Shown here in pieces: positions 8,975 to 21,609 of a DNA stretch of 64,000 bases. Below the pieces are notes generated by a model. It ran no database searches. It saw nothing but the letters and a program-made list of their open reading frames with translations, and was not told the origin of the DNA. The position numbers were made by a program, and so were the translations under genes. Every line of letters begins with the position of its first letter. Positions within the stretch are counted from its first letter, which is position 1. The DNA is from Polyangiaceae bacterium (GTDB lineage: Bacteria > Myxococcota_A > Polyangia > Polyangiales > Polyangiaceae): positions 160,001 to 224,000 of the forward strand of contig JANRKO010000019.1 in NCBI GenBank assembly GCA_033763455.1, read 5' to 3'.

Positions 8975-9061
8975 GCCCAATACCCCCGAAACCTAAACTA
9001 GCGACGGAAGCCAGCTTTGATTTCGGGGGTTGTGCTTGTGGCACGTGGTCAGCTTTCGCCA

Positions 9062-10174
9062 TCATGCGCCACTCTTGCCGTTGGTGAGAAGCTGCGCCGG
9101 GAGCAGTGATTGGAGCCCGTCGGCCCCAACCACCACCTTCACTTCTTGGATGTGCTGAGCGATCTCTTTCATCGCTTCCAGCTCCTTCAAGCGCAAAAGT
9201 ACCGGGTTTGCCTCCATAACCTTGGCCGTGTTCGCCAACGACCGCGTAGCGGCCGTTTCTTCACGACGTAAGATCACGTTGGCCGCAGCTTCCTTTTCGG
9301 CCTCGATCACGCGATTCAACAGGGCTTTCATTTCACCCGGCAAAACCACGTCTTTGACACCCACATGTTCGATCTTGACTCCCAGCGCCGTGGTGCATGC
9401 CGTAACCCGTCGCTCCATGAAGCGTGTCATTTCGTCACGCCCTTCGAGCAATTGATCGAGGGTTACCCCGGCCACGTATTCACGCGCGGCAAGCTGGGCT
9501 GCCGTGTAGACAGAATCCCGTAGGTTCTGCACCTTGGTTGCAACCACCACCGGATCAGAAACAGCGTATTCGGCCGTTAACGTCAAACGCAACGTCACCT
9601 TATCTCGCGTCATCAATTCCTGACCAGCAATGGTTACTTCCTGGCGCCGCATATCCACGACGCCAATCTCGGCCTTGGCTCCAGGGTGCGTCCACAACTT
9701 GTATCGGCCCGGCGGCAACACAGAAACGAAGCGCCCCTGCTCGTAACGCAAGCCCATTTGGTAGGCCAATACCGTTACGTCAATGTACTCATTGGACGGA
9801 ATCAACCGCTCCAACTCTGCCGACATTTCCGGCAAAGGCTGAGTAACATCGAACACCGAAAGCTGCACAGAAGCATCTACGGTCCAATAACGGTGCACCC
9901 CCGGGCGCAAAAATGCCACCGGCACACCATCTTTGAACAGGACACCTCGTTCACCAGAACCAATCACAACCTCACGAAACCAAGCAGAAGGCAGTTTTGC
10001 CCGGACTTCCGGCAGGGCTGAAAACAGCAAAACACTGGTATCGAACCGTTGCTCAGTGAGCCGCAACGACCAAACCCGATAACGGCCCGGGCCAAGTGCA
10101 GCTACAGGTAAGCCGTCCTTGAAAAGAACCACTCGTTCGTTTAACTTCACACGAATCAATTTTGACCACAACAT
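9062..10174 (-). CDS. Slipin family SPFH/band-7 protein
   Basis: Three LxPGxY/H N-terminal repeats, GQELMTRDKVTLR, VKDVVLPGEMK, RREETAATRSLANTA; SD GAGG upstream. Confidence 0.92.
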   Translation of the reverse strand: MLWSKLIRVKLNERVVLFKDGLPVAALGPGRYRVWSLRLTEQRFDTSVLLFSALPEVRAKLPSAWFREVVIGSGERGVLFKDGVPVAFLRPGVHRYWTVDASVQLSVFDVTQPLPEMSAELERLIPSNEYIDVTVLAYQMGLRYEQGRFVSVLPPGRYKLWTHPGAKAEIGVVDMRRQEVTIAGQELMTRDKVTLRLTLTAEYAVSDPVVVATKVQNLRDSVYTAAQLAAREYVAGVTLDQLLEGRDEMTRFMERRVTACTTALGVKIEHVGVKDVVLPGEMKALLNRVIEAEKEAAANVILRREETAATRSLANTAKVMEANPVLLRLKELEAMKEIAQHIQEVKVVVGADGLQSLLPAQLLTNGKSGA

Positions 10175-10653
10175 GGGTCACCTCTTGGGTTGATGGACTC
10201 CCACCTTCGGCGTGAGCACCATGCCCGCGCCTTTGGAGATCGTCGATTGCTGGTATTTGCCGATACCGTCGGCTTTCGGCGAGCCCGCCTTTGGCCCTAG
10301 TAGTAGGGAGAACGGGACTCGGAAGATGTGCGGGGGCTCTGCAGACTGCTTGAGCCCGAAATTAGTGGCTCCAGAGGTTCAAAGCCCGGCGCCTAGGTTG
10401 AAGCGCAGTGTGAAGCCGCCGTAGCGGCCTCCGAAACGCTTCTCGCTTGAGCGTCTTGGGTCCGATGATTTGCGCGAAATCACTGCGATCTCACCCGGTT
10501 GCAGTCAGCGGGCGCCGAGGCGATGGCCGAAGCTTGCGAGCGAAATGTACGTGAGTTTGGGCAAAACTCGGGTCCGTTCGCCTTCCCCCAATGGCTGCGG
10601 AAGGGCTTTGAAAACCTCTGGAAACCTGGTGTGAATGCCTTTTTAAGGCCAGG

Positions 10654-10722
10654 CCCTTTGCTCTACCCGATGAGCTACAACTCCGTGAGGAGAAGATCGG
10701 ATTCGAACCGACTACCGAAGGG
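10654..10722 (-). ncRNA. Circularly permuted tRNA-like module (YrlA-type topology)
   Basis: CCCTT-CGGTA-GTCGG TTCGAAT CCGAT-CTTCTCC-TCAC-GGAGTTG-TA-GCTC ATCGGGTA GAGC-A-AAGGG: T-arm precedes D-arm and the acceptor-like stem is closed by a 4-nt loop. Confidence 0.72.
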
Positions 10723-10866
10723 TTCTGCCGTGACAGGGCAGTGTCATCCATGACAAGCATGCTTCCGGGACACAACTACCGGACATCCATCGGTGACTCA
10801 CGAGGAGACCAATGCACGCAGTGTTGCGCCGTTTTGAAGCAAGCTTCGCGGGATTCGAACCCGCGG

Positions 10867-10940
10867 CACACAAGGCAAGATTCGAACTTGCACTCTACTG
10901 ATATAGAATCAGCGGCCTCTACCTTTTGGGCTACATGTGT
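10867..10940 (-). tRNA. Atypical tRNA-like gene with CUA (amber) anticodon
   Basis: ACACATG TA GCCC AAAAGGTAGA GGC C GCTGA TTCTATA TCAGT AGAGT GCAAG TTCGAAT CTTGC CTTGTGT G: full cloverleaf, one U-U acceptor mismatch, U at 37, followed by CCG rather than CCA. Confidence 0.75.
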
Positions 10941-10993
10941 TAATTGGTTGCATACGGTTGGTCCTCTTGCTTTGAATATCGAGCCGGGAAATG

Positions 10994-11026
10994 AAAAAAG
11001 CCGCCGAGGTAACCCTGGGCGGCTTC
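10994..11026 (-). terminator. Intrinsic terminator / attenuator hairpin
   Basis: AAGCCGCC...GGCGGCTT stem running into a T6 tract; lies between the leader ORF and the tRNA-like array. Confidence 0.8.
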
Positions 11027-11050
11027 ACACAGAAACACTGCGTAAACGCC

Positions 11051-11179
11051 CTAGGGGGAGCCCCGAAAATCGCGAAAATTGCCGACTAAGCTGCGCTCGC
11101 GGCGTGCACCACAGACGAAAGCCATGCCAAGATTTGGCAGCTGTTGTGCTGTGATGGTGAAACGGTGGAAGTGCTTCAT
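11051..11179 (-). CDS. Putative leader peptide (42 aa; not in the ORF track)
   Basis: MKHFHRFTITAQQLPNLGMAFVCGARRERSLVGNFRDFRGSP-TAG; starts 11 nt after a -10-like box and ends about 25 nt before the terminator. Confidence 0.55.
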   Translation of the reverse strand: MKHFHRFTITAQQLPNLGMAFVCGARRERSLVGNFRDFRGSP

Positions 11180-11190
11180 GAGGAGGCCGC

Positions 11191-11218
11191 AGAGTACGGA
11201 TCTAGAAAAACAAGTCAA
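11191..11218 (-). promoter_or_regulatory. Sigma70-like promoter
   Basis: TTGACT-N16-TACTCT with an A-tract further upstream. Confidence 0.55.
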
Positions 11219-11304
11219 CACAATATCGCTCAGGCGTGTTTTTTTTACGAGGTGACGTTGCTCGCGATCCTCATTTCAAAGCTCCACCATGCAACACAGA
11301 GTCC

Positions 11305-11997
11305 CTAGAGGCGAGCCGTCCAGACGCGTTCAGCGCTGCCGGGGCGAGTCACGAACAAGCGCAGTGTTACCGGAGCCCGTTCACCCATGAGATAAAGCAC
11401 GCGGATTTTGTGCTCCCCGGGAGCCAGCGGGATGCTGCCCATCGCATTATGAGCCTTCCTGCTGTCGTCGTTGTTCACGACTTGGCGGCCATTAATCCAC
11501 AGGATGGCGGCGCCCTGGGTCTTTAACCGAAACTTATAGTTGCCAGCCGCCGAAACGGAGAATCTGCCAGTGTAGTTAATGGCAAACCAGTCGTAGCGCT
11601 CGGCGATTCCTGGGAAACCCGAAAAGTAGCGCTGAGCTACGTCCAAGCTATCCACGAACAAGCGACCTTGCGGGATGCACCGTTCAAGGCGCAGCAAAGA
11701 CACTGTGTTAGGCTTAACAAAGCACACTGTACCCGCGAGCGCTGCTTTGCGGCTGTGGCCAAACAAGGTGCTCCCCGACACCACAGGTACGCGACCACCT
11801 TTGTGACTCGCCCAACGCTCGCCCATGCCAGCGGGCGTGCCGCCTTGCTCGACACCGTACCCGTCCATTCTGTTGCGGCTAGCAGTTCGGATCCGTTCCC
11901 CCAACGACTGACCATGGGCCGCGCCAGCTAAGCTCAGCACTCCAAGTGCCACGCGACTCCCCCACTTCCACAACGTCCCGATCACCATGCGTTTCAC
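11305..11997 (-). CDS. Secreted PA14-domain protein
   Basis: Signal peptide; WFAINYTGRF..AGNYKFRL....GAILWING..VVNND and LAPGEHKIRVLY fit the PA14 pattern. Confidence 0.75.
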   Translation of the reverse strand: MKRMVIGTLWKWGSRVALGVLSLAGAAHGQSLGERIRTASRNRMDGYGVEQGGTPAGMGERWASHKGGRVPVVSGSTLFGHSRKAALAGTVCFVKPNTVSLLRLERCIPQGRLFVDSLDVAQRYFSGFPGIAERYDWFAINYTGRFSVSAAGNYKFRLKTQGAAILWINGRQVVNNDDSRKAHNAMGSIPLAPGEHKIRVLYLMGERAPVTLRLFVTRPGSAERVWTARL

Positions 11998-12151
11998 TTC
12001 ACTAGCACAAGTGCCCAGTGGACCGCGCCATCAGCTAAGACATGCTGTGGAAACAATTAAGCAAACTGCCCGAAAACCCTAGAGAAATCCTGACATTTCG
12101 AGTGCTGGTTTCCCTTGCTATGCCGGGAGCGGGCGTCTATCTCCGTGACTC

Positions 12152-13603
12152 ATGGATCTCAAACACTACGAAGTGGATCCGAAGAGTTACGACGAAATGT
12201 TCGACGCGAGCGGCGAGGTTCGGCCGGCCTATCGGGAACTTGCGCGGCGGCTCGGCGAAATGTCCGGTGAAGATTTCACCCGGCGGCAACGCACGGCAGA
12301 TATCTTGCTGCGAAACCAGGGCGTCACGTTCACCGTGTACTCGGACGACGCGGGCATTGAGAAGGTTTTTCCGTTCGACCCCATCCCGCGCCTGATGCCT
12401 GCCGAAGAATGGAGCCTGATTGAACGCGGCTTGATTCAGCGCATTGAGGCCTTGAACCTTTTCATTGCTGACATCTATGGGGATCAACACATCCTCAAAG
12501 ACAAAGTGGTTGATCCTGAGCTCATCTTAGGCGCCTCATTTTTCCGCCGTGAGATGATGGGGTTTAGGCCGCCTCGTGGGATCTATACCCACATCACCGG
12601 CACAGATTTAATTCGCGATGCCAACGGAAAATTCGTCGTCCTAGAAGACAATGCTCGGAACCCAAGCGGCGTGAGCTACGTGCTTGAATGCCGCGCAGTT
12701 CTGAAACGTGTCTTCCCGCTCTTGTTCGAAACGTACGGAGTGCGCCCGGTTGAAGATTACGCCAATTGGCTCCGCGACATGATGCAATTTGTAGCGCCAC
12801 GAGGCTCATCCAATCCAAGCATGGTGGTGCTGACGCCGGGCATCTACAATTCGGCGTACTTCGAACACAGCTTTTTAGCCCGCCAAATGGGTGTACCGCT
12901 CGTCGAAGGTCGAGATTTGGTCGTAAAAGATGGAATGGTGTGCATGCGCACGATTACCGGGCTGCAGCGGGTGGATGTTATCTACCGGCGCCTGGATGAT
13001 GACTTTCTGGACCCACTTATCGGTCGCCCTGATTCGGTATTGGGCTGCGCGGGGCTTTTCTCGGCGTATCGCAGTGGGGCGGTGACGCTCGTGAACGCAC
13101 CAGGCACAGGCGCCGTGGACGATAAAGCTGTCTACCCGTTCGTGCCGGACATGATTCGTTATTATCTTAAGAGTGAACCTATCATTGACAACGTTCCAAC
13201 CTATTTGGCAACCCGCCCGGATGAGCAGAAGTACATGCTCGAGAATATCCACGAACTGGTGATCAAACAGACCGACGCTTCCGGCGGCTACGGCATGTTG
13301 ATTGGCACGCACTCTACGGCAGAGGAACGCGAAGACTTCAAACGGCGCATCAAGGCTAAGCCCCGCTCCTACATTGGCCAACCCACTATCAGTCTCGGCA
13401 AACATCCCACAGTAATCGACGGTAAGCTGGAAGGGCGGTGCGTCGATTTGAGGCCTTATGTCCTTTATGGCGAGCGAATTTCGGTCATTCCAGGAGCCCT
13501 CACCCGGGTGGCACTCAGGAAGGGCTCTCTCGTTGTTAATTCAAGCCAAGGTGGTGGCTACAAAGATACCTGGGTGCTCACTGATAAGGGAGGCGCAGCC
13601 TAA
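12152..13603 (+). CDS. Circularly permuted type 2 ATP-grasp protein
   Basis: [55 protein letters not shown]. Confidence 0.93.
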
Positions 13604-14520
13604 TGTTAAGCCGAGTTGCAGACGCCCTTTATTGGATGAGCCGTTACGTCGAACGTGCTGAGCACGCAGCACGTGTCCTCGAGGTCACACGCCGCATGTT
13701 GATCGACGTTGAGCCCCTCGCCCCTCAAATGGCCAAACGCATTCGGGACGACGCATTTCGCAGCTTGGGCCTTCCGGGCGTCGACTTGCACGGAGCCATC
13801 TTCGACGAATCAGAGCCTGGGTCTATCGCCTCCTCTGTCTTCAGAGCCCGAGAGAATGCTCGTCAGGTGCAGGAGGTTATTAGCTCGGAGATGTGGGGCT
13901 ATATCAACGAGACGCACTGGATGCTCTCGGAGGCCCGTCGGGCGGGGCCTTCGCGTGAGCTGCCAGACCTCTTGGGTGAAGTAGTAAAGGCTGGGTTTCT
14001 TTGGGCTGGGGTTACGGATGCCACTATGGGTCGCGGGCCTGGTTGGTTGTTTATTCGCCTGGGCCAGTTCGTTGAACGAGCGGACCGAACGAGTCGAATT
14101 TTTGCGGCACAATGGGAGGCCATCGAGGAGTTGAGTACTGAGGCCATCCACACCTCGGGCGATCACTTTGCCTGGCTCACATTGCTTCGGAGTTGCGGAT
14201 CGCTTGAGGAGTATAGGAAGCGGTACCCAACACGCATGACAGCACGGCAAGTGGCGGATTTTATGCTGCTAGACGACACCTTTCCGCGCACCGTGCGCTA
14301 CTCAGTCTCAGTTGCGGCCGAATTTTCAAAACGCTTAACCCAGTTCGCAAGCCCCGAACGCGCCCGCGCTGAACGCGCGTTTGGGAGAGTCGCTTCTCGC
14401 ATCGAATACACCACCATCGACGAAGTTATGGAGACCGGCCCAGCTGTGTTCGTGAGAGGCGTTGCAGAAGAGATCTTGCTGGCGACAGCCGAGCTCCAGA
14501 GCGCGTATTTCTTGCACTAA
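13603..14520 (+). CDS. Alpha-E domain protein
   Basis: [38 protein letters not shown] (ER motifs). Confidence 0.92.
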   Translation: MLSRVADALYWMSRYVERAEHAARVLEVTRRMLIDVEPLAPQMAKRIRDDAFRSLGLPGVDLHGAIFDESEPGSIASSVFRARENARQVQEVISSEMWGYINETHWMLSEARRAGPSRELPDLLGEVVKAGFLWAGVTDATMGRGPGWLFIRLGQFVERADRTSRIFAAQWEAIEELSTEAIHTSGDHFAWLTLLRSCGSLEEYRKRYPTRMTARQVADFMLLDDTFPRTVRYSVSVAAEFSKRLTQFASPERARAERAFGRVASRIEYTTIDEVMETGPAVFVRGVAEEILLATAELQSAYFLH

Positions 14521-14529
14521 CGAGGACCC

Positions 14530-15549
14530 ATGCTGCTGTTCATCAAACACCTCACCGAACTCACGTATTCGGAGCCCATCACCGAAACGGTGATGGAAGT
14601 TCGCATGACTCCGCGAAACGATGCCCACCAAGTGCGGCGCGCGTTTCGCCTGGAGGTGGGGCCCAGCGCCACACCTTTCGAACACACAGATTGGCTCGGT
14701 AACCGCGTGCAGCAGTTCTCCATTTTGCCCCCGCACGATAAAGTCGTGATCTTGGCTCGGAGCGTGGTGGATACGCAGCCAAGGCACTCAGTGCTCGCAG
14801 ATGTGAATCGCGGGTCAGTGCCTCCGCTCGACCATCGAATCGGCGACTATTTGCGCTTCACCGGGCCGGTTGTGGACGTTCACAACCTCGACCGTTTGAT
14901 TCAAAATTTGGGGCTCGGGGCACCGGCGTCGCCTGAAGTTATTCTGCAACGAGTCGCGTCAAACCTGCGCGATCACGTGGAGTACCGTAAAGGCGTTACC
15001 ACGAGCGCCACGGCGATCGACAAGGTGCTCGAGCAGCGCGCTGGTGTGTGCCAGGATCTGGCTCACGTGGCCATTGGGATCTTGCGCAAGCTCGGCGTAC
15101 CAGCTCGCTACGTGTCGGGGTATTTCTATCGCGCGGATGGAAACAGCGAGATGGAGAGCCATGCTTGGTGCGAGGCGCACTTCCAGGGCACAGGTTGGCT
15201 CCCGATAGATCCCACCCACAAAACACTGGCGGGCGAAGGGCACGTTGCTATCGCGAGCGGTCGCGATTTCTCTGACGTTTCACCCAATCGCGGCGTCTAT
15301 CGCGGCAAGGGTGAAGAGAGCCTGCGCGTAAGAGTCACCGTGCAAGAGGTGCAAGAGGTACCCGAAGGCTTATTTGCCGTAGGCTCACCCGAAGTCGAGG
15401 TGCAGCCAATTGGAGGAGGCATGCTTCCCACCCACCGCGAAGCTCTCGAATACCAGCAAGAACAGCAGCAACAGCAGCAACAGCAGCAACAAGTACAGCA
15501 GCAACAGCAGCAACAAGTACAGCAACACCAATATTCGGCTGTGCACTGA
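14530..15549 (+). CDS. Transglutaminase-like protein with poly-Gln tail
   Basis: GVCQDLAH, ARYVSGY, SHAWCE, DPT, GRDFSDVSP. Confidence 0.92.
   Translation: MLLFIKHLTELTYSEPITETVMEVRMTPRNDAHQVRRAFRLEVGPSATPFEHTDWLGNRVQQFSILPPHDKVVILARSVVDTQPRHSVLADVNRGSVPPLDHRIGDYLRFTGPVVDVHNLDRLIQNLGLGAPASPEVILQRVASNLRDHVEYRKGVTTSATAIDKVLEQRAGVCQDLAHVAIGILRKLGVPARYVSGYFYRADGNSEMESHAWCEAHFQGTGWLPIDPTHKTLAGEGHVAIASGRDFSDVSPNRGVYRGKGEESLRVRVTVQEVQEVPEGLFAVGSPEVEVQPIGGGMLPTHREALEYQQEQQQQQQQQQQVQQQQQQQVQQHQYSAVH
15454..15531 (+). repeat. CAG/CAA trinucleotide tract encoding a polyQ tail
   Basis: Encodes QQEQQQQQQQQQQVQQQQQQQVQQHQ. Confidence 0.9.
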
Positions 15550-15559
15550 GCCTTATCCC

Positions 15560-18500
15560 ATGGCCATTCGAGTTCGTCTCAGTCATCAAACGCGTTACCG
15601 TTACGACAAGCCCATTAACCTGGGCCCACAAACGGTTCGCCTCCGACCAGCACCCCACAACCGCACGCCCCTACACACGTATGGGCTTCACATCGAACCC
15701 AAGGGCCACTTTCTCAATTGGCAGCAGGATCCTTACGGCAATTATCTGGCAAGGCTGGTTTTCCCAGAAAAGGTAGACCATTTTGAAGTCACCGTCGATT
15801 TGGTCGCCGATCTTGAGGCGTACAATCCGTTTGATTTTTTCGTCGAGCCAGAAGCCGAGAATTTCCCTTTCAGCTACGAGCCCACACTTAAAAAAGAGCT
15901 AGAGCCCTATCTAGAGCAAGACCCCCTAACGCCCGCCCTCGCAGCTTTCATCGACAGTTTGAACAAGACACCGCGGAGAGTTAACGATTTCCTTGTAGAA
16001 ACGAACCGCGCTGTAAATGAGGCCGTTAGCTACATTATTCGCCTGGAGCCGGGCGTCCAAAGTCCCGAAGAAACGCTCACTCTGGCCAAGGGCTCGTGTC
16101 GAGATTCTGCATGGCTATTGGCGGTGGTGTTGCGAAAGCTAGGCCTGGCGGCCCGGTTTGTTTCCGGATACCTCATCCAGCTCACGCCAGATCAGCGCCC
16201 GATTGAAGGCGCCCAGGGCCCGCTCGCAGACTTTTGCGACTTGCATGCCTGGTGTGAAGTCTACGTTCCCGGCGCCGGTTGGATTGGGTTAGATGCAACG
16301 AGCGGGCTTCTGACAGCCGAAGGGCACATTCCGCTCGCGTGTTCCCCAAGCCCAGGTTCTGCGGCACCCATTTCGGGGCTGTTGGATGAAGCCGAAACCG
16401 ATTTCAGCCATCACATGTTTGTGGAACGCGTGGTGGACGTTCCCCGCGTCACCAAACCCTATACCGATGAAGAGTGGGCCGCCGTTGAGAAGTTCGGCAC
16501 CAAGGTGGATGAGCATCTAACGCGCTCAGACGTTCGCCTCACCGTAGGGGGTGAGCCCACCTTTGTGAGCACCGAATACCCGGATGACGCCGAATGGAAC
16601 ACGGACGCCCTTGGTAAAAATAAGGAAGGCCTTGCCGATAAGCTGATTCGCCGTTTGCGGAGCGACTGGTATCCCAAAAGCGCCCTCTACCATGCGCAGG
16701 GCAAGTGGTACCCGGGTGAGCCTTTGCCGCGGTGGGCTATTTCCTGCTTCTTTCGCACCGACGGCGTGCCCGTTTGGAATGATCCTGCGCTTATAGCCGA
16801 TACCAACAAGAGCTACGACCACGGGCCCAAAGAGGCCGAAGCCTTCGCAAAGCGTTTGATCGAGAATCTCGGGCTCGAGCGCCACGGCCTGATGCCAGCG
16901 TTTGAGGATGCTTGGTACTACATGTGGCGCGCGCGGCGTTTACCTGTAAACGTGATGCCGCTCGATAATCGCGTGGATGATGAGGTGGAGCGCGAGCGAA
17001 TAGCGGCCGTATTCAACCAAAAGCTATCCAGCGTGGTGGGCTATGTGCTCCCCCTGACGTATTGGGGTGGTTGGCGCAGTGGGTCTTTTTTCCTCAAAGA
17101 TGAACGCTGCTACCTGCTTCCTGGTGATTCGCCGATGGGTTACCGCTTGCCTTTGGATTCCCTACCGTGGATCGCCCAGGAAGATTGGGACGGCAACATT
17201 CCGGTAGATCCTTTCGCGCGCCAGCCTTCGTTGCCAAAGGCCTTTCACTTCCCGTTGATGCCGGCGCCCGCGATGCCGGCGCCTATCCGCCGTGTGGTGC
17301 CTTCTCTGCCGAAAGCCGAAGTTGCGCCCAACGGGCAGCCAAAAGGCGCCGTTCCTTCACCTCGCGGCGCCGCCCCAGGCAGCACTCATGCCGCGCCGTT
17401 CACGTCACCCGCACAGTTCGAGTCTGCCACGGGCGTGGTGCGCACCGCTTTGTGTGTCGAGCCCCGAGCCGGTCGTTTGCGGATCTTCTTGCCTCCACTG
17501 GAAACGCTCGAAGCGGCCCTTGAGCTCATCGCCGCCATCGAAACAACCGCGGCGCAGCTGAAGCTACCCGTGCAACTGGAAGGCTACGAACCCCCGAGGG
17601 ATCCGCGGCTCGGCGTGTTTCGTGTCACTCCGGATCCGGGTGTGATCGAGGTCAACGTGCCCCCGGTCTCCAGTTTTGCGGCGCAGAAGCTCCAAACCCT
17701 CTCGCTCTATGAACACGCTCGCCAAGTAAAGTTGAGCGCCGAAAAGTTTGATCTCGACGGCACCCACATCGGCAGCGGCGGTGGCTACCACCTCGTGCTT
17801 GGCGGAATGACGCCTGAAAATAGCCCATTTTTGCGGCGACCAGATTTGCTCGGCAGTTTGATTCGTTATTTTCACAACCACCCCAGCCTCTCTTATCTTT
17901 TCTCAGGGCGCTTCATCGGCCCCACCTCGCAATCGCCACGCGTGGATGAAGGCCGCAACGACAGCATCTACGAACTCGAAATAGCTCTCCAACAGTTGCC
18001 GCAAAAGGGGCAGAACGTTCCACCGTGGATTGTGGACCGTGTGCTCCGGCACTTGCTCGCAGACGTTACTGGCAACACCCATCGGACGCAGTTCTGCATC
18101 GATAAGCTCTATTCCCCCGATAGCGCTACAGGGCGGCTCGGCCTCTTGGAGCTGCGCTCTTTCGAAATGCCACCGCATGCCCAAATGGCGGTCGTGCAAC
18201 AGCTCTTAGTGGGCGCTATGGTCGCGAGTTTTTGGGAGCAACCTTATCGTGAAGATCTGGTGTCGTGGAACACGATGCTGCACGATAAATTCATGCTCCC
18301 CTACTTCGTAAAGCGTGACTTTTACGAGGTGCTGGCCGATCTTGAGCGACGCGGATTCAAGCTCGATCGCCACTGGTTCGAGCCACATTACCAGTTTCGG
18401 TTCCCGTATATCGGGCACGTGGTTAAGGATGCTGTAACCCTAGAGATACGTGGCGCTCTCGAACCCTGGAATGTGCTCGGAGAAGAGAGCACTGGAGCCG

Positions 18501-18949
18501 GGACTGCCCGCTACGTGGATTCATCAGTTGAACGCTTGCAGGTACGCGTATTCGGTGCCACACCCGGCCGGCATATTGTGTGTTGCAACAACGTGGAGCT
18601 ACCGCTTGTTGCCACTGGCGTGGAAGGCGAAATGGTAGGGGGCGTGCGTTATCGAGCCTGGCAACCCCCATCATGCCTTCACCCAACCATCGGCGTTCAG
18701 TCACCGCTTGCGTTCGATTTGTACGATCGTTGGAACGGCGTGGCGATTGCGGGGGCCACCTATCACGTAGTGCACCCGGGAGGCCGGGCGGATGAGGTCC
18801 GCCCCGTAAATGCAGCAGCCGCGGAAAGCCGCAGGCTCGCTCGCTTCGAGGCTCGCAGCGTAGGCACCCGTTTGGTTCAACCGCGGCGCCTGGAGCCCCA
18901 TCCGAAGTTCCCATTTACGCTCGATTTACGCCGGGCTTGGCTAGCCTAA
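15560..18949 (+). CDS. Transglutaminase domain fused to DUF2126 (putative amidoligase)
   Basis: GSCRDSAW, DLHAWCE, GGEPTFVS, GKWYPGE, PDPGVIEVN, TLDLRR; start placed at MAIRVRL. Confidence 0.88.
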   Translation: MAIRVRLSHQTRYRYDKPINLGPQTVRLRPAPHNRTPLHTYGLHIEPKGHFLNWQQDPYGNYLARLVFPEKVDHFEVTVDLVADLEAYNPFDFFVEPEAENFPFSYEPTLKKELEPYLEQDPLTPALAAFIDSLNKTPRRVNDFLVETNRAVNEAVSYIIRLEPGVQSPEETLTLAKGSCRDSAWLLAVVLRKLGLAARFVSGYLIQLTPDQRPIEGAQGPLADFCDLHAWCEVYVPGAGWIGLDATSGLLTAEGHIPLACSPSPGSAAPISGLLDEAETDFSHHMFVERVVDVPRVTKPYTDEEWAAVEKFGTKVDEHLTRSDVRLTVGGEPTFVSTEYPDDAEWNTDALGKNKEGLADKLIRRLRSDWYPKSALYHAQGKWYPGEPLPRWAISCFFRTDGVPVWNDPALIADTNKSYDHGPKEAEAFAKRLIENLGLERHGLMPAFEDAWYYMWRARRLPVNVMPLDNRVDDEVERERIAAVFNQKLSSVVGYVLPLTYWGGWRSGSFFLKDERCYLLPGDSPMGYRLPLDSLPWIAQEDWDGNIPVDPFARQPSLPKAFHFPLMPAPAMPAPIRRVVPSLPKAEVAPNGQPKGAVPSPRGAAPGSTHAAPFTSPAQFESATGVVRTALCVEPRAGRLRIFLPPLETLEAALELIAAIETTAAQLKLPVQLEGYEPPRDPRLGVFRVTPDPGVIEVNVPPVSSFAAQKLQTLSLYEHARQVKLSAEKFDLDGTHIGSGGGYHLVLGGMTPENSPFLRRPDLLGSLIRYFHNHPSLSYLFSGRFIGPTSQSPRVDEGRNDSIYELEIALQQLPQKGQNVPPWIVDRVLRHLLADVTGNTHRTQFCIDKLYSPDSATGRLGLLELRSFEMPPHAQMAVVQQLLVGAMVASFWEQPYREDLVSWNTMLHDKFMLPYFVKRDFYEVLADLERRGFKLDRHWFEPHYQFRFPYIGHVVKDAVTLEIRGALEPWNVLGEESTGAGTARYVDSSVERLQVRVFGATPGRHIVCCNNVELPLVATGVEGEMVGGVRYRAWQPPSCLHPTIGVQSPLAFDLYDRWNGVAIAGATYHVVHPGGRADEVRPVNAAAAESRRLARFEARSVGTRLVQPRRLEPHPKFPFTLDLRRAWLA

Positions 18950-19050
18950 AGTTGGGTGCTTGAACGGCCTGGCACCTACGGGCACAACGCTAACCTCTGC
19001 CTCTCCCAGGCACCGCGAGCGCTAGGACCCACTCACGGCAAAGGACCCGT

Positions 19051-21609
19051 TTGCTCCCAACCCAGTTTCAGTCCCAATCCCAGTCAGAACCGCCTCCGTC
19101 CACGGGCGGTGGCGAGTCCTACGACGAGATCTGGAGCGGCCCTGGCCACGCGAGGGCCCACCAGGCGCTCTTGCAGGAGCACCTACTAGTTCAGCCCCTG
19201 GACGATCTGCTGAAGGTTCGCCAGGCGGTTGAGCGTCAGATGGCCGAGCAAGCTGTTACGTTCAACATCTTGGGCGTTCCCGGAGGCGAAAACCGCTCTT
19301 GGGAGCTCGACCCAATCCCATGGGTGATTGAAAGTCGCGAATGGGCAGAGCTGTCGCGGAAGCTCGTACAACGAGCCCAGCTCCTGGAAGCGTTCTTGGC
19401 GGACTGTTACGGCCCGCAACGCATGCTGCGCGAAGGTGTCATTCCGGCCCGCGTGGTCCTCGCCAATCCAGACTTTCTGCGAGCGTGTCACGGCTGGCGC
19501 CCACTCGGAGAGAAGCGTCTATGGCTCTACGCTGCAGATCTCGCACGCGACAAAGCTGGTGATTTTCACGTATTTTCCGATCGCGCCGCAGCACCTACAG
19601 GGGCGGGCTACGCGCTCGAAAATCGCCTGGTTTTGGGGCGGGTTTTAGGGGATTTGTTCCGTGAATACCGGGTCACGAAAGTTCGGGGTTTCTTCGAAAA
19701 GCTGAAGGCGTGCGTAGCCGAGTTGGCTCCACCGGGCCGCCCCGATCCCCGTGCGATCGTGCTCACAACGGGCATGCAAGATGAGAGTTCGTTCGAGCAT
19801 GCCTACTTAGCTCGCTACCTCGGCTTTGATCTTATGGAGGGCCGAGATCTGAGCGTGAGAGACGGCAAAGTCTTCCTAAAGACAGTCGCCGGGCTCACCC
19901 AGATCGACGTGATTTTGCGCCGTGTTCCAGATGCCTTCTGTGATCCTGTCGAGCTTCGCGAAGATTCCATGATCGGCGTTCCCGGCCTCGTGGAAGCCGC
20001 CCACGGAAAACACATTGGGTTGGCCAATCCGCTTGGGGCAAGCCTCATCGAATCACCTGCAATGAAAGCATTTCTCGGGCCCCTGTGCCAAGCCCTTCTG
20101 GGAGAGGATTTGCTGTTACCTTCGGTGGAGACTCACTATCTCGGGACGCCCGGATCGCTAGAATACGTACAATCCAAGCCTGAAGAATTCCTGATAAAAC
20201 CAGCCTTTGCAGAGCGTCGCGGGGCGATTCGGCCTTTGGGCGAGTTGAGTATCTCCGAGCGAACAACGCTTTTAGATTCTGTGAAGGCGCGCCCTCACGA
20301 CTTCGTAGCGGAACGCTGGCCCGCCTGCTCTCGCAGCCCCCTTCTCACTCGACACGGCCTCGGAGCAGGAAGGCTTACCCTGCGCTCATTTCTGTGCCGC
20401 GACAAAGAATCTTTCGCCGTGATGCCGGGGGGCTTCGCACGGCTTGATTCAACACCAGACGGCATCTTCCTCACCAACCGCCTTACGCGAACCTGCAAAG
20501 ACGTTTGGATCCCTGAGGTGGGTACGACCTACGACATGAAGTTGCCGCAGATGCCCGATCAACGCATGTCGCTCCGACGTGGTGCCCAAGATCTACCAAG
20601 CCGCTTGGTGGACGATATTTTTTGGTTGGGGCGTTACATCGAACGCACCGATGCTTCAGCTCGTTTGATCCGCGCCGGTTTTGACCGCCTAGGAATGGAA
20701 GCCGCTGGTGACGCGCAGCAAGTATTAGAAGCAATTCTTGAAGCGTTGAAGCTCAAGGGGCAGCTACCAGCGACGTTCGATGTGCGCGGTATGTTTTCGA
20801 AGCCCGATAATCGAGCCCTGGCGCAGGTGCTAAACGGCGCATTATTCGATCAAACCTCCGGCAGCAGCGTGTACGCCACGCTCGATCGTATCCACAAACT
20901 CATGATCGGCGTAAGAAGCCGCCTTTCCCGTGACGCGTGGCATACGTTGAGGCGTCTTACGAGTGCCCTGGATGCAACCCCACTGCACCATTCGTCGCTC
21001 GGCACGGCCGAGATCTTGGAACTTCTGGACGAGCTTCTGGTACTGCTTTCTGCTGCCACCGGAGCCACGCTCGATAACATGGTGCGAGGCCACGCCTGGC
21101 TGTTTCTCGATCTCGGGCGCCGCCTTGAACGAGCGTCGGCTACCCTGGAACTGTTGGAAGCGATGCTGCCATCAGGGGCCACGCGCGCGCACATGGAATG
21201 CTTATTGGAAGTTACAGATAGCTTGCTCACGTATCGCGCCCGCTACGTTTCTAGCCTGCAAGTGGCCCCCATCGTTGACCTCCTACTTACAGACAATACC
21301 AATCCGCGCTCTGTGCTCTTTCAAGTCGAAACCATCGATCAGCACGTAGAAGCACTACCTAACCAAAGCGGCGCTCTGGTAACACGAGCCGAAAAGCGCG
21401 TGCTCACCCTCCGAACCCGCCTCGTCGCAGCAGATATCGAGGAAGCCACCGGGGGTCAAGGCGAAGGCCTGCGCCAACTTGTGAAAGACGCCGCCGAGCT
21501 TGTTTGGCAGCTCTCTGATGATATCGCCGCGACGTGGTTTTCACACGCAGCCCCCTCACGCTCGCTCACCATTCCCGCTTGGGTTAACGAACAACTCGAA
21601 CGCCAGTGA
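19051..21609 (+). CDS. Circularly permuted ATP-grasp / alpha-E fusion
   Basis: WELDPIP, APTGAGYALENR, FEHAYLARYLG, then LPSRLVDDIFWLGRYIER and LGRRLER. Confidence 0.9.
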   Translation: MLPTQFQSQSQSEPPPSTGGGESYDEIWSGPGHARAHQALLQEHLLVQPLDDLLKVRQAVERQMAEQAVTFNILGVPGGENRSWELDPIPWVIESREWAELSRKLVQRAQLLEAFLADCYGPQRMLREGVIPARVVLANPDFLRACHGWRPLGEKRLWLYAADLARDKAGDFHVFSDRAAAPTGAGYALENRLVLGRVLGDLFREYRVTKVRGFFEKLKACVAELAPPGRPDPRAIVLTTGMQDESSFEHAYLARYLGFDLMEGRDLSVRDGKVFLKTVAGLTQIDVILRRVPDAFCDPVELREDSMIGVPGLVEAAHGKHIGLANPLGASLIESPAMKAFLGPLCQALLGEDLLLPSVETHYLGTPGSLEYVQSKPEEFLIKPAFAERRGAIRPLGELSISERTTLLDSVKARPHDFVAERWPACSRSPLLTRHGLGAGRLTLRSFLCRDKESFAVMPGGFARLDSTPDGIFLTNRLTRTCKDVWIPEVGTTYDMKLPQMPDQRMSLRRGAQDLPSRLVDDIFWLGRYIERTDASARLIRAGFDRLGMEAAGDAQQVLEAILEALKLKGQLPATFDVRGMFSKPDNRALAQVLNGALFDQTSGSSVYATLDRIHKLMIGVRSRLSRDAWHTLRRLTSALDATPLHHSSLGTAEILELLDELLVLLSAATGATLDNMVRGHAWLFLDLGRRLERASATLELLEAMLPSGATRAHMECLLEVTDSLLTYRARYVSSLQVAPIVDLLLTDNTNPRSVLFQVETIDQHVEALPNQSGALVTRAEKRVLTLRTRLVAADIEEATGGQGEGLRQLVKDAAELVWQLSDDIAATWFSHAAPSRSLTIPAWVNEQLERQ

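Follow-up and report, generated by a model that had tools for sequence, protein, structure and literature searches.

GOLLD and ROOL are large, ornate bacterial RNAs, often found beside tRNA genes, and the eukaryotic vault particle joins the major vault protein (MVP) to vault RNA. To our knowledge, bacteria have few structured RNAs that are several hundred nucleotides long and whose function is unknown. YrlA is a bacterial Y RNA that mimics tRNA. In the part of Chen et al. 2014 drawn on here (PMC4201824), the tRNA-like domain of YrlA is defined, its terminal stem is reported to carry the Ro60-binding motif GNCGAAN0-1G, and the YrlA of M. smegmatis, which has a 7-bp acceptor stem, undergoes cleavage by RNase P and addition of CCA. 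A Band-7 module is known from a passage of 10.1101/312249, according to which Burroughs and Aravind (2016) predicted in silico a Band-7 protein that comes with a b7a-tRNA and adjoins RtcB, and YrlA occasionally next to a Band-7 protein. The same passage describes b7a-tRNA as a molecule very similar to a genuine tRNA and states that neither prediction had been validated. In P. aeruginosa, an SPFH gene sits inside the rtc locus, as given in an excerpt of PMC13086221.

Here, we describe a locus on the minus strand of a 64,000-nt stretch of DNA from a Polyangiaceae bacterium (JANRKO010000019.1, positions 160,001-224,000; the window). Read 5' to 3' on that strand, it consists of a PA14-domain gene, a tRNA-like gene, an orphan T arm, about 120 nt of structure, a tRNA mimic, the stretch 10190-10650 and a slipin gene. 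A sequence-only reading had proposed the stretch 10190-10650 to be either a multi-domain noncoding RNA or a complex 5' leader of slipin. That proposal is supported by folding that beats shuffled controls and by strong covariation in two clades. The features of the locus, in window coordinates and all on the minus strand, are as follows.

11997-11305, minus: PA14-domain gene, upstream end of the cassette
10865-10940, minus: tRNA-like gene with anticodon CUA (ARAGORN; Rfam tRNA, 50.3 bits), directly upstream of the RNA
10848-10864, minus: orphan T-arm hairpin GCGGG-TTCGAAT-CCCGC, read in the sequence, two bases past the tRNA-like gene
10760-10835 (approximate), minus: 5' segment, a predicted long imperfect hairpin with conserved GTGTCCGG / GTGTCCCGG motifs (alifold)
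10725-10741, minus: hairpin 1, CTGCC-CTGTCAC-GGCAG, with a 5-bp stem and a 7-nt anticodon-loop-like loop; equivalents occur in related loci
10652-10724, minus: circularly permuted tRNA mimic (model R1, 72.9 bits; covariation in alignment A4; weak Rfam YrlA match)
10696-10712, minus: T arm of the mimic
10678-10695, minus: 7-bp acceptor hairpin of the mimic, loop TCAC
10660-10675, minus: D arm of the mimic
10636-10651, minus: hairpin 2, directly 3' of the mimic (consensus helix 1 of alignment A3)
10603-10621, minus: closing helix, 5' strand (sequence, minimum free energy [MFE] fold and A3 covariation)
10388-10602, minus: interior multi-helix domain (A3 consensus helices 3-9; nested stems in the MFE fold of the window locus)
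10371-10387, minus: closing helix, 3' strand (sequence and A3 consensus)
10355-10370, minus: U-rich tail after the closing helix, weak in the window locus (T count)
10175-10354, minus: slipin 5' leader with further hairpins (sequence and MFE fold)
9062-10174, minus: slipin gene, a soluble SPFH/Band-7 protein with two extra N-terminal beta repeats (Pfam Band_7, E 3.2e-29)

RESULTS

The stretch upstream of slipin is a conserved folded RNA domain

The pairings that the sequence-only reading had listed are all present on the minus strand. They include a long-range helix, CCAGAGGTT(TT)CAAAGCCC / GGGCTTTGAACCTCTGG (10621-10603 with 10387-10371), the nested stems GAGTTT/AAACTC, GCAGTG/CACTGC, TGATTT/AAATCA and GAGGCCGC-TACG-GCGGCTTC, and the hairpins named after these. 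Also present is the twice-repeated CCAAAGGCG..GCCGAA motif, which is specific to the window locus and lies in the slipin leader. The folding energy of 10175-10660(-) is -194 kcal/mol, compared to -171.3 +/- 6.7 for 100 dinucleotide shuffles, none of which folded as well (z -3.37). The plus strand folds equally well by the same kind of control (z -3.94), so the strand is not assignable from energy alone. At Rfam gathering scores, tRNA alone was matched in the whole window. The domain itself (10371-10621) matched no Rfam 15 model in the window locus, either at the gathering score or with E as high as 10. In 20 related loci searched at the gathering score, and in four searched with E as high as 1, the domain was likewise without a match.

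A DNA search with 10175-10960 in 40 relatives returned no match outside the genome of origin. A sequence-only nhmmer profile of the domain recovered its 13 seed sequences and only two further loci. The sequence is too fast-evolving for BLAST, and the wider RNA family was reached by structure and synteny, not by sequence profile. We gathered slipin loci via the protein, obtaining 5 from the 40 relatives and 80 from GTDB species genomes. All 80 are from Myxococcota and belong to Polyangiaceae, Sandaracinaceae, Nannocystaceae, Kofleriaceae, Haliangiales and Labilithrix. Among the 13 closest sequences, in which the window is counted twice (also as locus L097), the spacer between the mimic and slipin is homologous, as aligned with MAFFT (alignment A3).

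The RNAalifold consensus of A3 comprises 60 pairs, 45 of which have changed on both sides, and 0 of 500 shuffles reach the observed values. The share of paired cells is 87.1%, as opposed to 35-43% when partners are slid by one to three columns, and the covariation score is 0.479 versus 0.09-0.14 for the slid controls. Compensatory change is found in 14 of the 15 pairs of the closing helix, and compensatory changes are also present in the interior consensus helices 3-9. The window locus keeps the closing helix; its interior helices depart from the family consensus and fit it only in part, and its hairpin 2 is a variant of the family's ACGACC..GTCGT hairpin.

An independent alignment (A7) was made from 18 Kofleriaceae/Haliangiales loci, which have almost no sequence in common with the window locus. 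Here 40 of 58 pairs are compensated, again with 0 of 500 shuffles reaching the observed values, and 91.6% of cells are paired versus 25-44% in the slid controls. The plan is that of A3: hairpins, then a 17-bp closing helix round about 270 nt of nested helices. The interior of the domain evolves fast, and its architecture is kept across families with sequences beyond alignment. In the paired cells, G-U exceeds A-C in both alignments (70 versus 38 in A3; 73 versus 14 in A7), which assigns the RNA sense to the slipin strand. These results confirm that the 10190-10650 stretch is a real, evolutionarily conserved folded RNA domain.

The domain continues a permuted tRNA mimic

On the 5' side of the domain lies a circularly permuted tRNA mimic, which is built, in order, of P stem, variable loop, T arm, closed acceptor hairpin, D arm and P stem. 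Its flanks pair as an "anticodon-stem" helix, and its acceptor stem is capped by the 4-nt loop. In an alignment of the mimic (A4; 34 sequences, 21 pairs), 92.7% of cells are paired versus 33-42% in slid controls; among 500 shuffles, 0 attain the observed values. Each of the seven pairs of the acceptor hairpin is compensated. The D arm and the T-loop/D-loop nucleotides of the mimic are invariant.

In 71 of the 80 loci across Polyangia, a covariance model built on the mimic (R1) has a same-strand match that lies 290-630 nt upstream of slipin; in the window locus the mimic lies 478 nt upstream of the slipin start. Three of the nine exceptions (L025, L079 and L080) are without upstream DNA, and four (L028, L072, L074 and L088) are without a match. 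In L027 the match is 1450 nt upstream of slipin and the slipin frame holds a stop, and in L068 the match falls inside the reported protein match.

The region between the orphan T arm and the mimic also has recurring parts. Over 12 full-length sequences, alifold predicts one extended hairpin for the 5' segment, and its motif is seen in most loci. A long hairpin of the GTGTCCGG type and a small hairpin with a 7-nt loop are common to this region in the relatives, and many related loci have a similar orphan T arm at the same position. Counted from the orphan T arm, the conserved RNA of the window locus is about 0.5 kb long. The domain is continuous with a tRNA-shaped module upstream and is not free-standing.

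Two candidate readings of the mimic and its model failed. A tmRNA was sought and rejected: ARAGORN finds none in the window, and a standard tmRNA is present on another contig (129.8 bits). Likewise, R1 fails as a marker for the slipin-type RNA, as it matches 128 of 151 genomes at E <= 1e-9. The model is unspecific because true YrlAs, and probably also the junctions of adjacent tRNA genes, fit it.

The slipin-type RNA is a YrlA relative

In a permissive search, Rfam YrlA (RF02553) matches the window locus at 10656-10720 with model positions 23-85 and 27.4 bits (gathering score 69). Three relatives give matches of 30-35 bits over model positions 23-88, which is the tRNA-like core only. Model positions 1-22 and 89-114, the terminal stem, are never matched by the slipin-type RNA.

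R1 also matches units away from slipin in the same GTDB order, and these have pairing 5' and 3' flanks with a GNCGAA-type motif. Four of them are true YrlAs, scoring 70-74 bits over model positions 1-114 and thus at or above the cut-off; others are just below it. Most of the strong R1 matches away from slipin, among those checked, adjoin TROVE/Ro60 genes. Of 9 YrlA-type units, 5 have the GNCGAAN0-1G motif within 60 nt. At slipin-type loci it occurs within 120 nt upstream of the mimic in 5 of 58, at scattered places, and upstream of the mimic in the window locus it is absent. In the window-locus genome (93.7% complete) there is no TROVE (Ro60) match and no RtcB. In a 151-genome sample of the order, which includes one unpublished genome (G147) that none of our conclusions depends on, slipin orthologs are patchy (22 of 151 genomes), and a TROVE match is absent in 16 of the 19 genomes with a close slipin ortholog. 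Since its genome has neither Ro60 nor RtcB, the slipin-type RNA is not a classical Y RNA; it is a YrlA relative working without Ro60.

A putative terminator-like 3' end of the domain leads into slipin

In many relatives the closing helix is followed by a U-run. The 12 nt after the helix hold a mean of 5.8 T in 12 A3 sequences and 6.3 in the 18 Kofleriaceae/Haliangiales sequences, where about 2.1 would be expected from composition; at least six T are found in 8 of 12 and 15 of 18, respectively. With four T in these 12 nt, the U-run of the window locus is weak. A simple pattern scan of 9900-11400 in the window locus, for promoters and terminators, found neither. A helix enclosing about 215 nt is no textbook intrinsic terminator.

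In Kofleriaceae, the slipin ribosome binding site (RBS) and start come only some 20-60 nt after the U-run, which leaves little room for a promoter before slipin. In the window locus, the RBS and start lie 197 nt past the closing helix, across extra hairpins and the duplicated CCAAAGGCG..GCCGAA motif; a small leader hairpin, CCGACGGTATCGG, stands at 10260-10272 on the minus strand. This small hairpin (CCGRCGGNAYCGG) is found just before the RBS, 27-63 nt before the slipin match, in 14 of 77 loci and shows an A-U to G-C swap. Judged from sequence, the anatomy after the closing helix is that of a putative terminator-like or attenuator-like RNA end doubling as the slipin leader.

The locus is a cassette absent from congeners, with links to tRNA genes in relatives

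The PA14 gene, tRNA-like gene, RNA and slipin form a cassette that is a 3.07-kb indel relative to three congeners. At the cassette site, the AMP-binding gene is followed by the ATP-grasp operon within about 130-180 nt in all three congeners. A flanking direct repeat was sought and none is evident. No RNA repair genes lie near the cassette in the window-locus genome, where the neighbours are unrelated by Pfam. The tRNA-like gene at 10865-10940 has a U following its anticodon, and the cmscan alignment shows one mismatch in its acceptor; this tRNA(CUA)-like gene could be a candidate counterpart of b7a-tRNA.

Some relatives tie the module to RNA repair genes and to tRNA genes. In one (G071:C485), the order is RtcA, an HNH gene, YrlA, Ro60 and tRNA-His, then a slipin-type module at the contig end. 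In another (G065:C94), slipin lies about 4 kb from a YrlA match (62 bits, below the cut-off), followed by an RtcB-like open reading frame (ORF). Genes for tRNA are found upstream, on the same strand, in 25 of 80 slipin loci. Some tRNA arrays span slipin, with 15 tRNA genes before and 7 after it in L040 and 15 and 6 in L037. Where tRNA arrays continue past slipin, a strong terminator would also keep transcription from the downstream tRNAs.

RNA-library contigs cover the 5' part

Metatranscriptome contigs from two runs of two studies cover 10653-10851 and 10689-10851. Both start at 10851, where a DNA run reads on. One ends at 10689, where the 3' acceptor strand has its last base; the other, from a 90-95% relative, runs 17 bases past the mimic. 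No RNA-library contig was found on 10190-10652, and the assemblies reach the 5' part and the mimic only. As assemblies, these contigs give weak hints of expression and of RNA ends.

Slipin is a soluble SPFH protein with extra beta repeats

In a profile search of PDB, stomatin is closest to slipin (E 1e-28, residues 129-338). In the AlphaFold model (pLDDT 86.7), the SPFH domain is preceded by two additional beta units of five strands each, and a long helix stands at the C terminus. The protein has no hydrophobic stretch, its maximum Kyte-Doolittle value over 19 residues being 1.15. Foldseek finds stomatin, HflK and prohibitin over about 220-260 columns, and with the whole chain MVP over 386-442 columns, the best E being 6.7e-12 over 386 columns. 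By VIA-align, the MVP match is confined to slipin residues 131-350 (Z 11-12), compared to Z 17 for stomatin, and a fold search with the N-terminal 128 residues alone gave nothing at E <= 0.001, with no MVP in the list. Bacterial MVP-like proteins have been described, as set out in part of 10.1101/872010. Because VIA-align limits the MVP match and the N-terminal repeats alone find nothing significant, the vault likeness of the modelled slipin appears to be a resemblance and not membership.

DISCUSSION

We consider it on the whole probable that the stretch 10190-10650 is the 3' two-thirds of an RNA of about 0.5 kb on the minus strand, and that this RNA is the Polyangia form of the module of a Band-7 protein with a tRNA-like RNA, for which an accessory role in RNA damage or RNA repair was predicted in silico. 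The slipin RNA module is probably part of a little-studied RNA-damage response. The RNA would span roughly from 10864, at the orphan T arm, to the U-rich run near 10355, with the structured slipin leader next. Its layout is a long hairpin, the YrlA-type permuted mimic, and a multi-helix domain closed by the 17-19-bp long-range helix, the large domain standing in the place that the Ro60-binding stem has in YrlA.

Transcription may enter the unit from upstream, and in many relatives the unit would then form the last part of a tRNA array transcript. The mimic, with the 7-bp acceptor helix stacked on the T arm, would be handled by tRNA enzymes, and putative RNase P cleavage within the acceptor loop would parallel the processing reported for M. 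smegmatis YrlA. The closing helix and U-run may end or attenuate most transcripts, yielding a discrete RNA and regulated read-through into slipin. As for a partner, the large domain would be the likely docking surface of a protein, most simply slipin itself; that slipin binds the RNA is at this stage our conjecture.

The same features could also be read as a cis-acting leader only, in which a riboswitch-like or protein-dependent attenuator of slipin uses the closing helix as its terminator stem and there is neither a stable RNA of its own nor any action in trans. The RNA is always directly upstream of slipin and on its strand, the RBS follows within 20-200 nt of the U-run after the closing helix, and a small conserved hairpin stands beside the RBS, all of which suit a leader. 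However, the tRNA elbow nucleotides, which are invariant, and the acceptor hairpin, with its 7 covarying pairs, point to recognition by tRNA-binding factors, as in YrlA, an RNA that functions by itself; the RNA-library contigs hold the 5' part as short pieces, which is weak evidence in the same direction; and we recognised no invariant core that resembles a ligand pocket. On these grounds a leader acting only in cis seems unlikely, although it is a serious alternative. Far less probable is a classical Ro60-binding YrlA that has acquired an insertion. The tRNA-like core is similar, and the same order has true YrlAs and Ro60 genes, which in one case stand right next to a slipin-type module. This reading is nevertheless close to refuted: TROVE is missing from the window-locus genome and from 16 of 19 slipin-carrying genomes, the Rfam match leaves out the terminal-stem positions 1-22 and 89-114, and the Ro60 motif is found in 5 of 58 slipin-type loci versus 5 of 9 YrlA-type units.

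Orphan T arms and an odd tRNA-like gene adjoin the domain, the cassette is present as a 3.07-kb indel compared to three congeners and the plus strand folds equally well, as might be seen in an integration scar, or in what is left of a decaying tRNA array, whose fold arose by chance in a G+C-rich spacer. Covariation refutes this. The compensated pairs (45/60 and 40/58) are matched in 0 of 500 shuffles, slid controls are only 25-44% paired, and the architecture is kept across families no longer alignable by sequence. The idea that the stretch encodes a small protein has next to nothing left to it. The mechanical ORFs are 10212-10424(+), 10470-10634(+) and 10491-10775(-); the two of these that were scanned, 10212-10424(+) and 10491-10775(-), have no Pfam match, the latter runs straight through the tRNA mimic, and the alignments show indels of all lengths along with paired-column substitution. 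The sequence-only reading had named a conserved protein in this stretch as the finding that would speak against an RNA, and none was seen in the ORFs scanned.

Returning to the RNA module with slipin as its neighbour, a bolder form of it is that the two make a soluble ribonucleoprotein cage, in which a membrane-less SPFH protein of MVP-like build, with its beta repeats, shoulder and long oligomerising helix, would bind the large domain and the mimic would recruit tRNA-processing or repair enzymes, or damaged tRNAs of the array around it. We regard the cage as a long shot. If it were true, it would represent the vault/vault-RNA or Ro60/Y-RNA principle in a bacterial form that works without any TROVE protein. 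If slipin binds the RNA at all, an SPFH-family scaffold in bacteria would have its first RNA partner, and if the closing helix acts as a conditional terminator, the result would be an unusual attenuator built round a 250-nt domain. Strong covariation, a fixed protein neighbour and a tRNA mimic together give clear experimental handles. The locus lends weight to the untested prediction, made in 2016, that Band-7 proteins and tRNA-like RNAs work together, it carries the Y RNA/YrlA idea into a setting free of Ro60 in which a tRNA-shaped module is joined to a putative protein-binding one, and it ties both the YrlA-like RNA and the Band-7 module to the large myxobacterial tRNA arrays.

Comparison with known systems

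In the literature searched, in which the 2016 Band-7 paper is represented by the passage that cites it, we found no description of the large domain. Like GOLLD and ROOL, the RNA is large, has many helices and lies next to tRNA genes. It differs from them in having no Rfam match at any threshold tried, in its taxa, and in carrying a tRNA mimic and a fixed protein-gene neighbour. The likeness to the vault lies in the modelled beta repeats, SPFH "shoulder" and long helix of slipin and in the small structured RNA gene that adjoins it; slipin, however, has 370 residues and two to three repeats, compared to about 800 residues and nine repeats in MVP.

With the Band-7/b7a-tRNA module, as that module is described in the citing passage, the locus shares a Band-7/SPFH gene adjoining a tRNA-like noncoding RNA. 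It differs in that the window-locus genome has no RtcB and in that the RNA consists of a permuted mimic and a large extra domain, not a near-authentic tRNA. With YrlA it shares the order of T arm, loop-closed acceptor stem and D arm, the invariant D- and T-loop nucleotides, and a 7-bp acceptor stem like that of the M. smegmatis form. In contrast to YrlA, the slipin-type RNA is without the Ro60-binding terminal stem, in a genome without a Ro60 gene; it carries an extra 5' hairpin and a 3' domain of about 250 nt; and it precedes a slipin gene, where YrlA lies beside rsr or rtcB.

Genomic setting of the slipin cassette

In the window, the PA14 gene, a tRNA-like gene, the structured RNA and the slipin gene form one 3.07-kb block (window ~8975-12040) that is absent from the syntenic site in three of three same-genus genomes. 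A direct repeat flanking this block was looked for and not found. The adjoining operon (12152-21609, plus strand), which is partly duplicated and carries circularly permuted ATP-grasp, alpha-E, transglutaminase-like and DUF2126 genes, is kept in the congeners and looks ordinary.

In several genomes of the same order, Polyangiales (loci L040, L037, L019, L015, L014 and L022), the slipin gene and its RNA are the sole non-tRNA genes inside an array of tRNA genes that all share one strand and number as many as 22 in a 6-kb stretch. In the window, two tRNA-related elements lie upstream of the circularly permuted tRNA mimic:

10865-10940, minus strand: tRNA-like gene, anticodon CUA
10848-10864, minus strand: orphan T-arm hairpin

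The CUA anticodon is amber-reading and is followed on its 3' side by U. The gene has one acceptor mismatch and a G+C content of only 46%, and in place of CCA there are two bases and then the orphan hairpin. This gene may be an array member in decay, may act as a suppressor, or may correspond to the b7a-tRNA, the tRNA-like RNA of an in silico predicted Band-7 module.

RNA, leader and protein

Contigs assembled from RNA libraries start at 10851 in both of two runs, and one terminates exactly at 10689, the final base of the 3' acceptor strand of the tRNA mimic. Position 10689 is where an end would be expected after an RNase P-type cut and trimming, contig ends being no proof of RNA ends.

Closer to the coding sequence, the slipin leader holds the CCAAAGGCG..GCCGAA motif twice (10295-10273 and 10236-10205, minus strand), a duplication that the relatives lack. 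It also includes a conserved element:

10272-10260, minus strand: small hairpin of the slipin leader

This hairpin lies 86-98 nt 5' of the start codon in the window and 27-63 nt 5' of the slipin match in the relatives; the greater distance is due to the window-specific duplication of the motif. The protein itself (9062-10174, minus strand) has no membrane segment and repeats the N-terminal beta unit of its SPFH domain two extra times. Its Kofleriaceae homologues, of ~489 residues, perhaps carry further repeats.

Relation to YrlA and Ro60

Genuine YrlA Y RNAs also occur within or adjoining tRNA arrays in the same order, beside Ro60 genes (L108, G158:C48; L110, G106:C11; L115, G060:C91; L117, G091:C148; L124, G071:C485). 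One contig (G071:C485:1-5439, spanning L105 and L124) encodes, in order, RtcA, an HNH endonuclease, YrlA, Ro60 (TROVE plus vWA), tRNA-His and a slipin-type module, after which it stops before any slipin gene could appear. Some same-order loci have YrlAs in tandem, in two or three copies, and four units reach the Rfam YrlA cut-off, at 70-74 bits.
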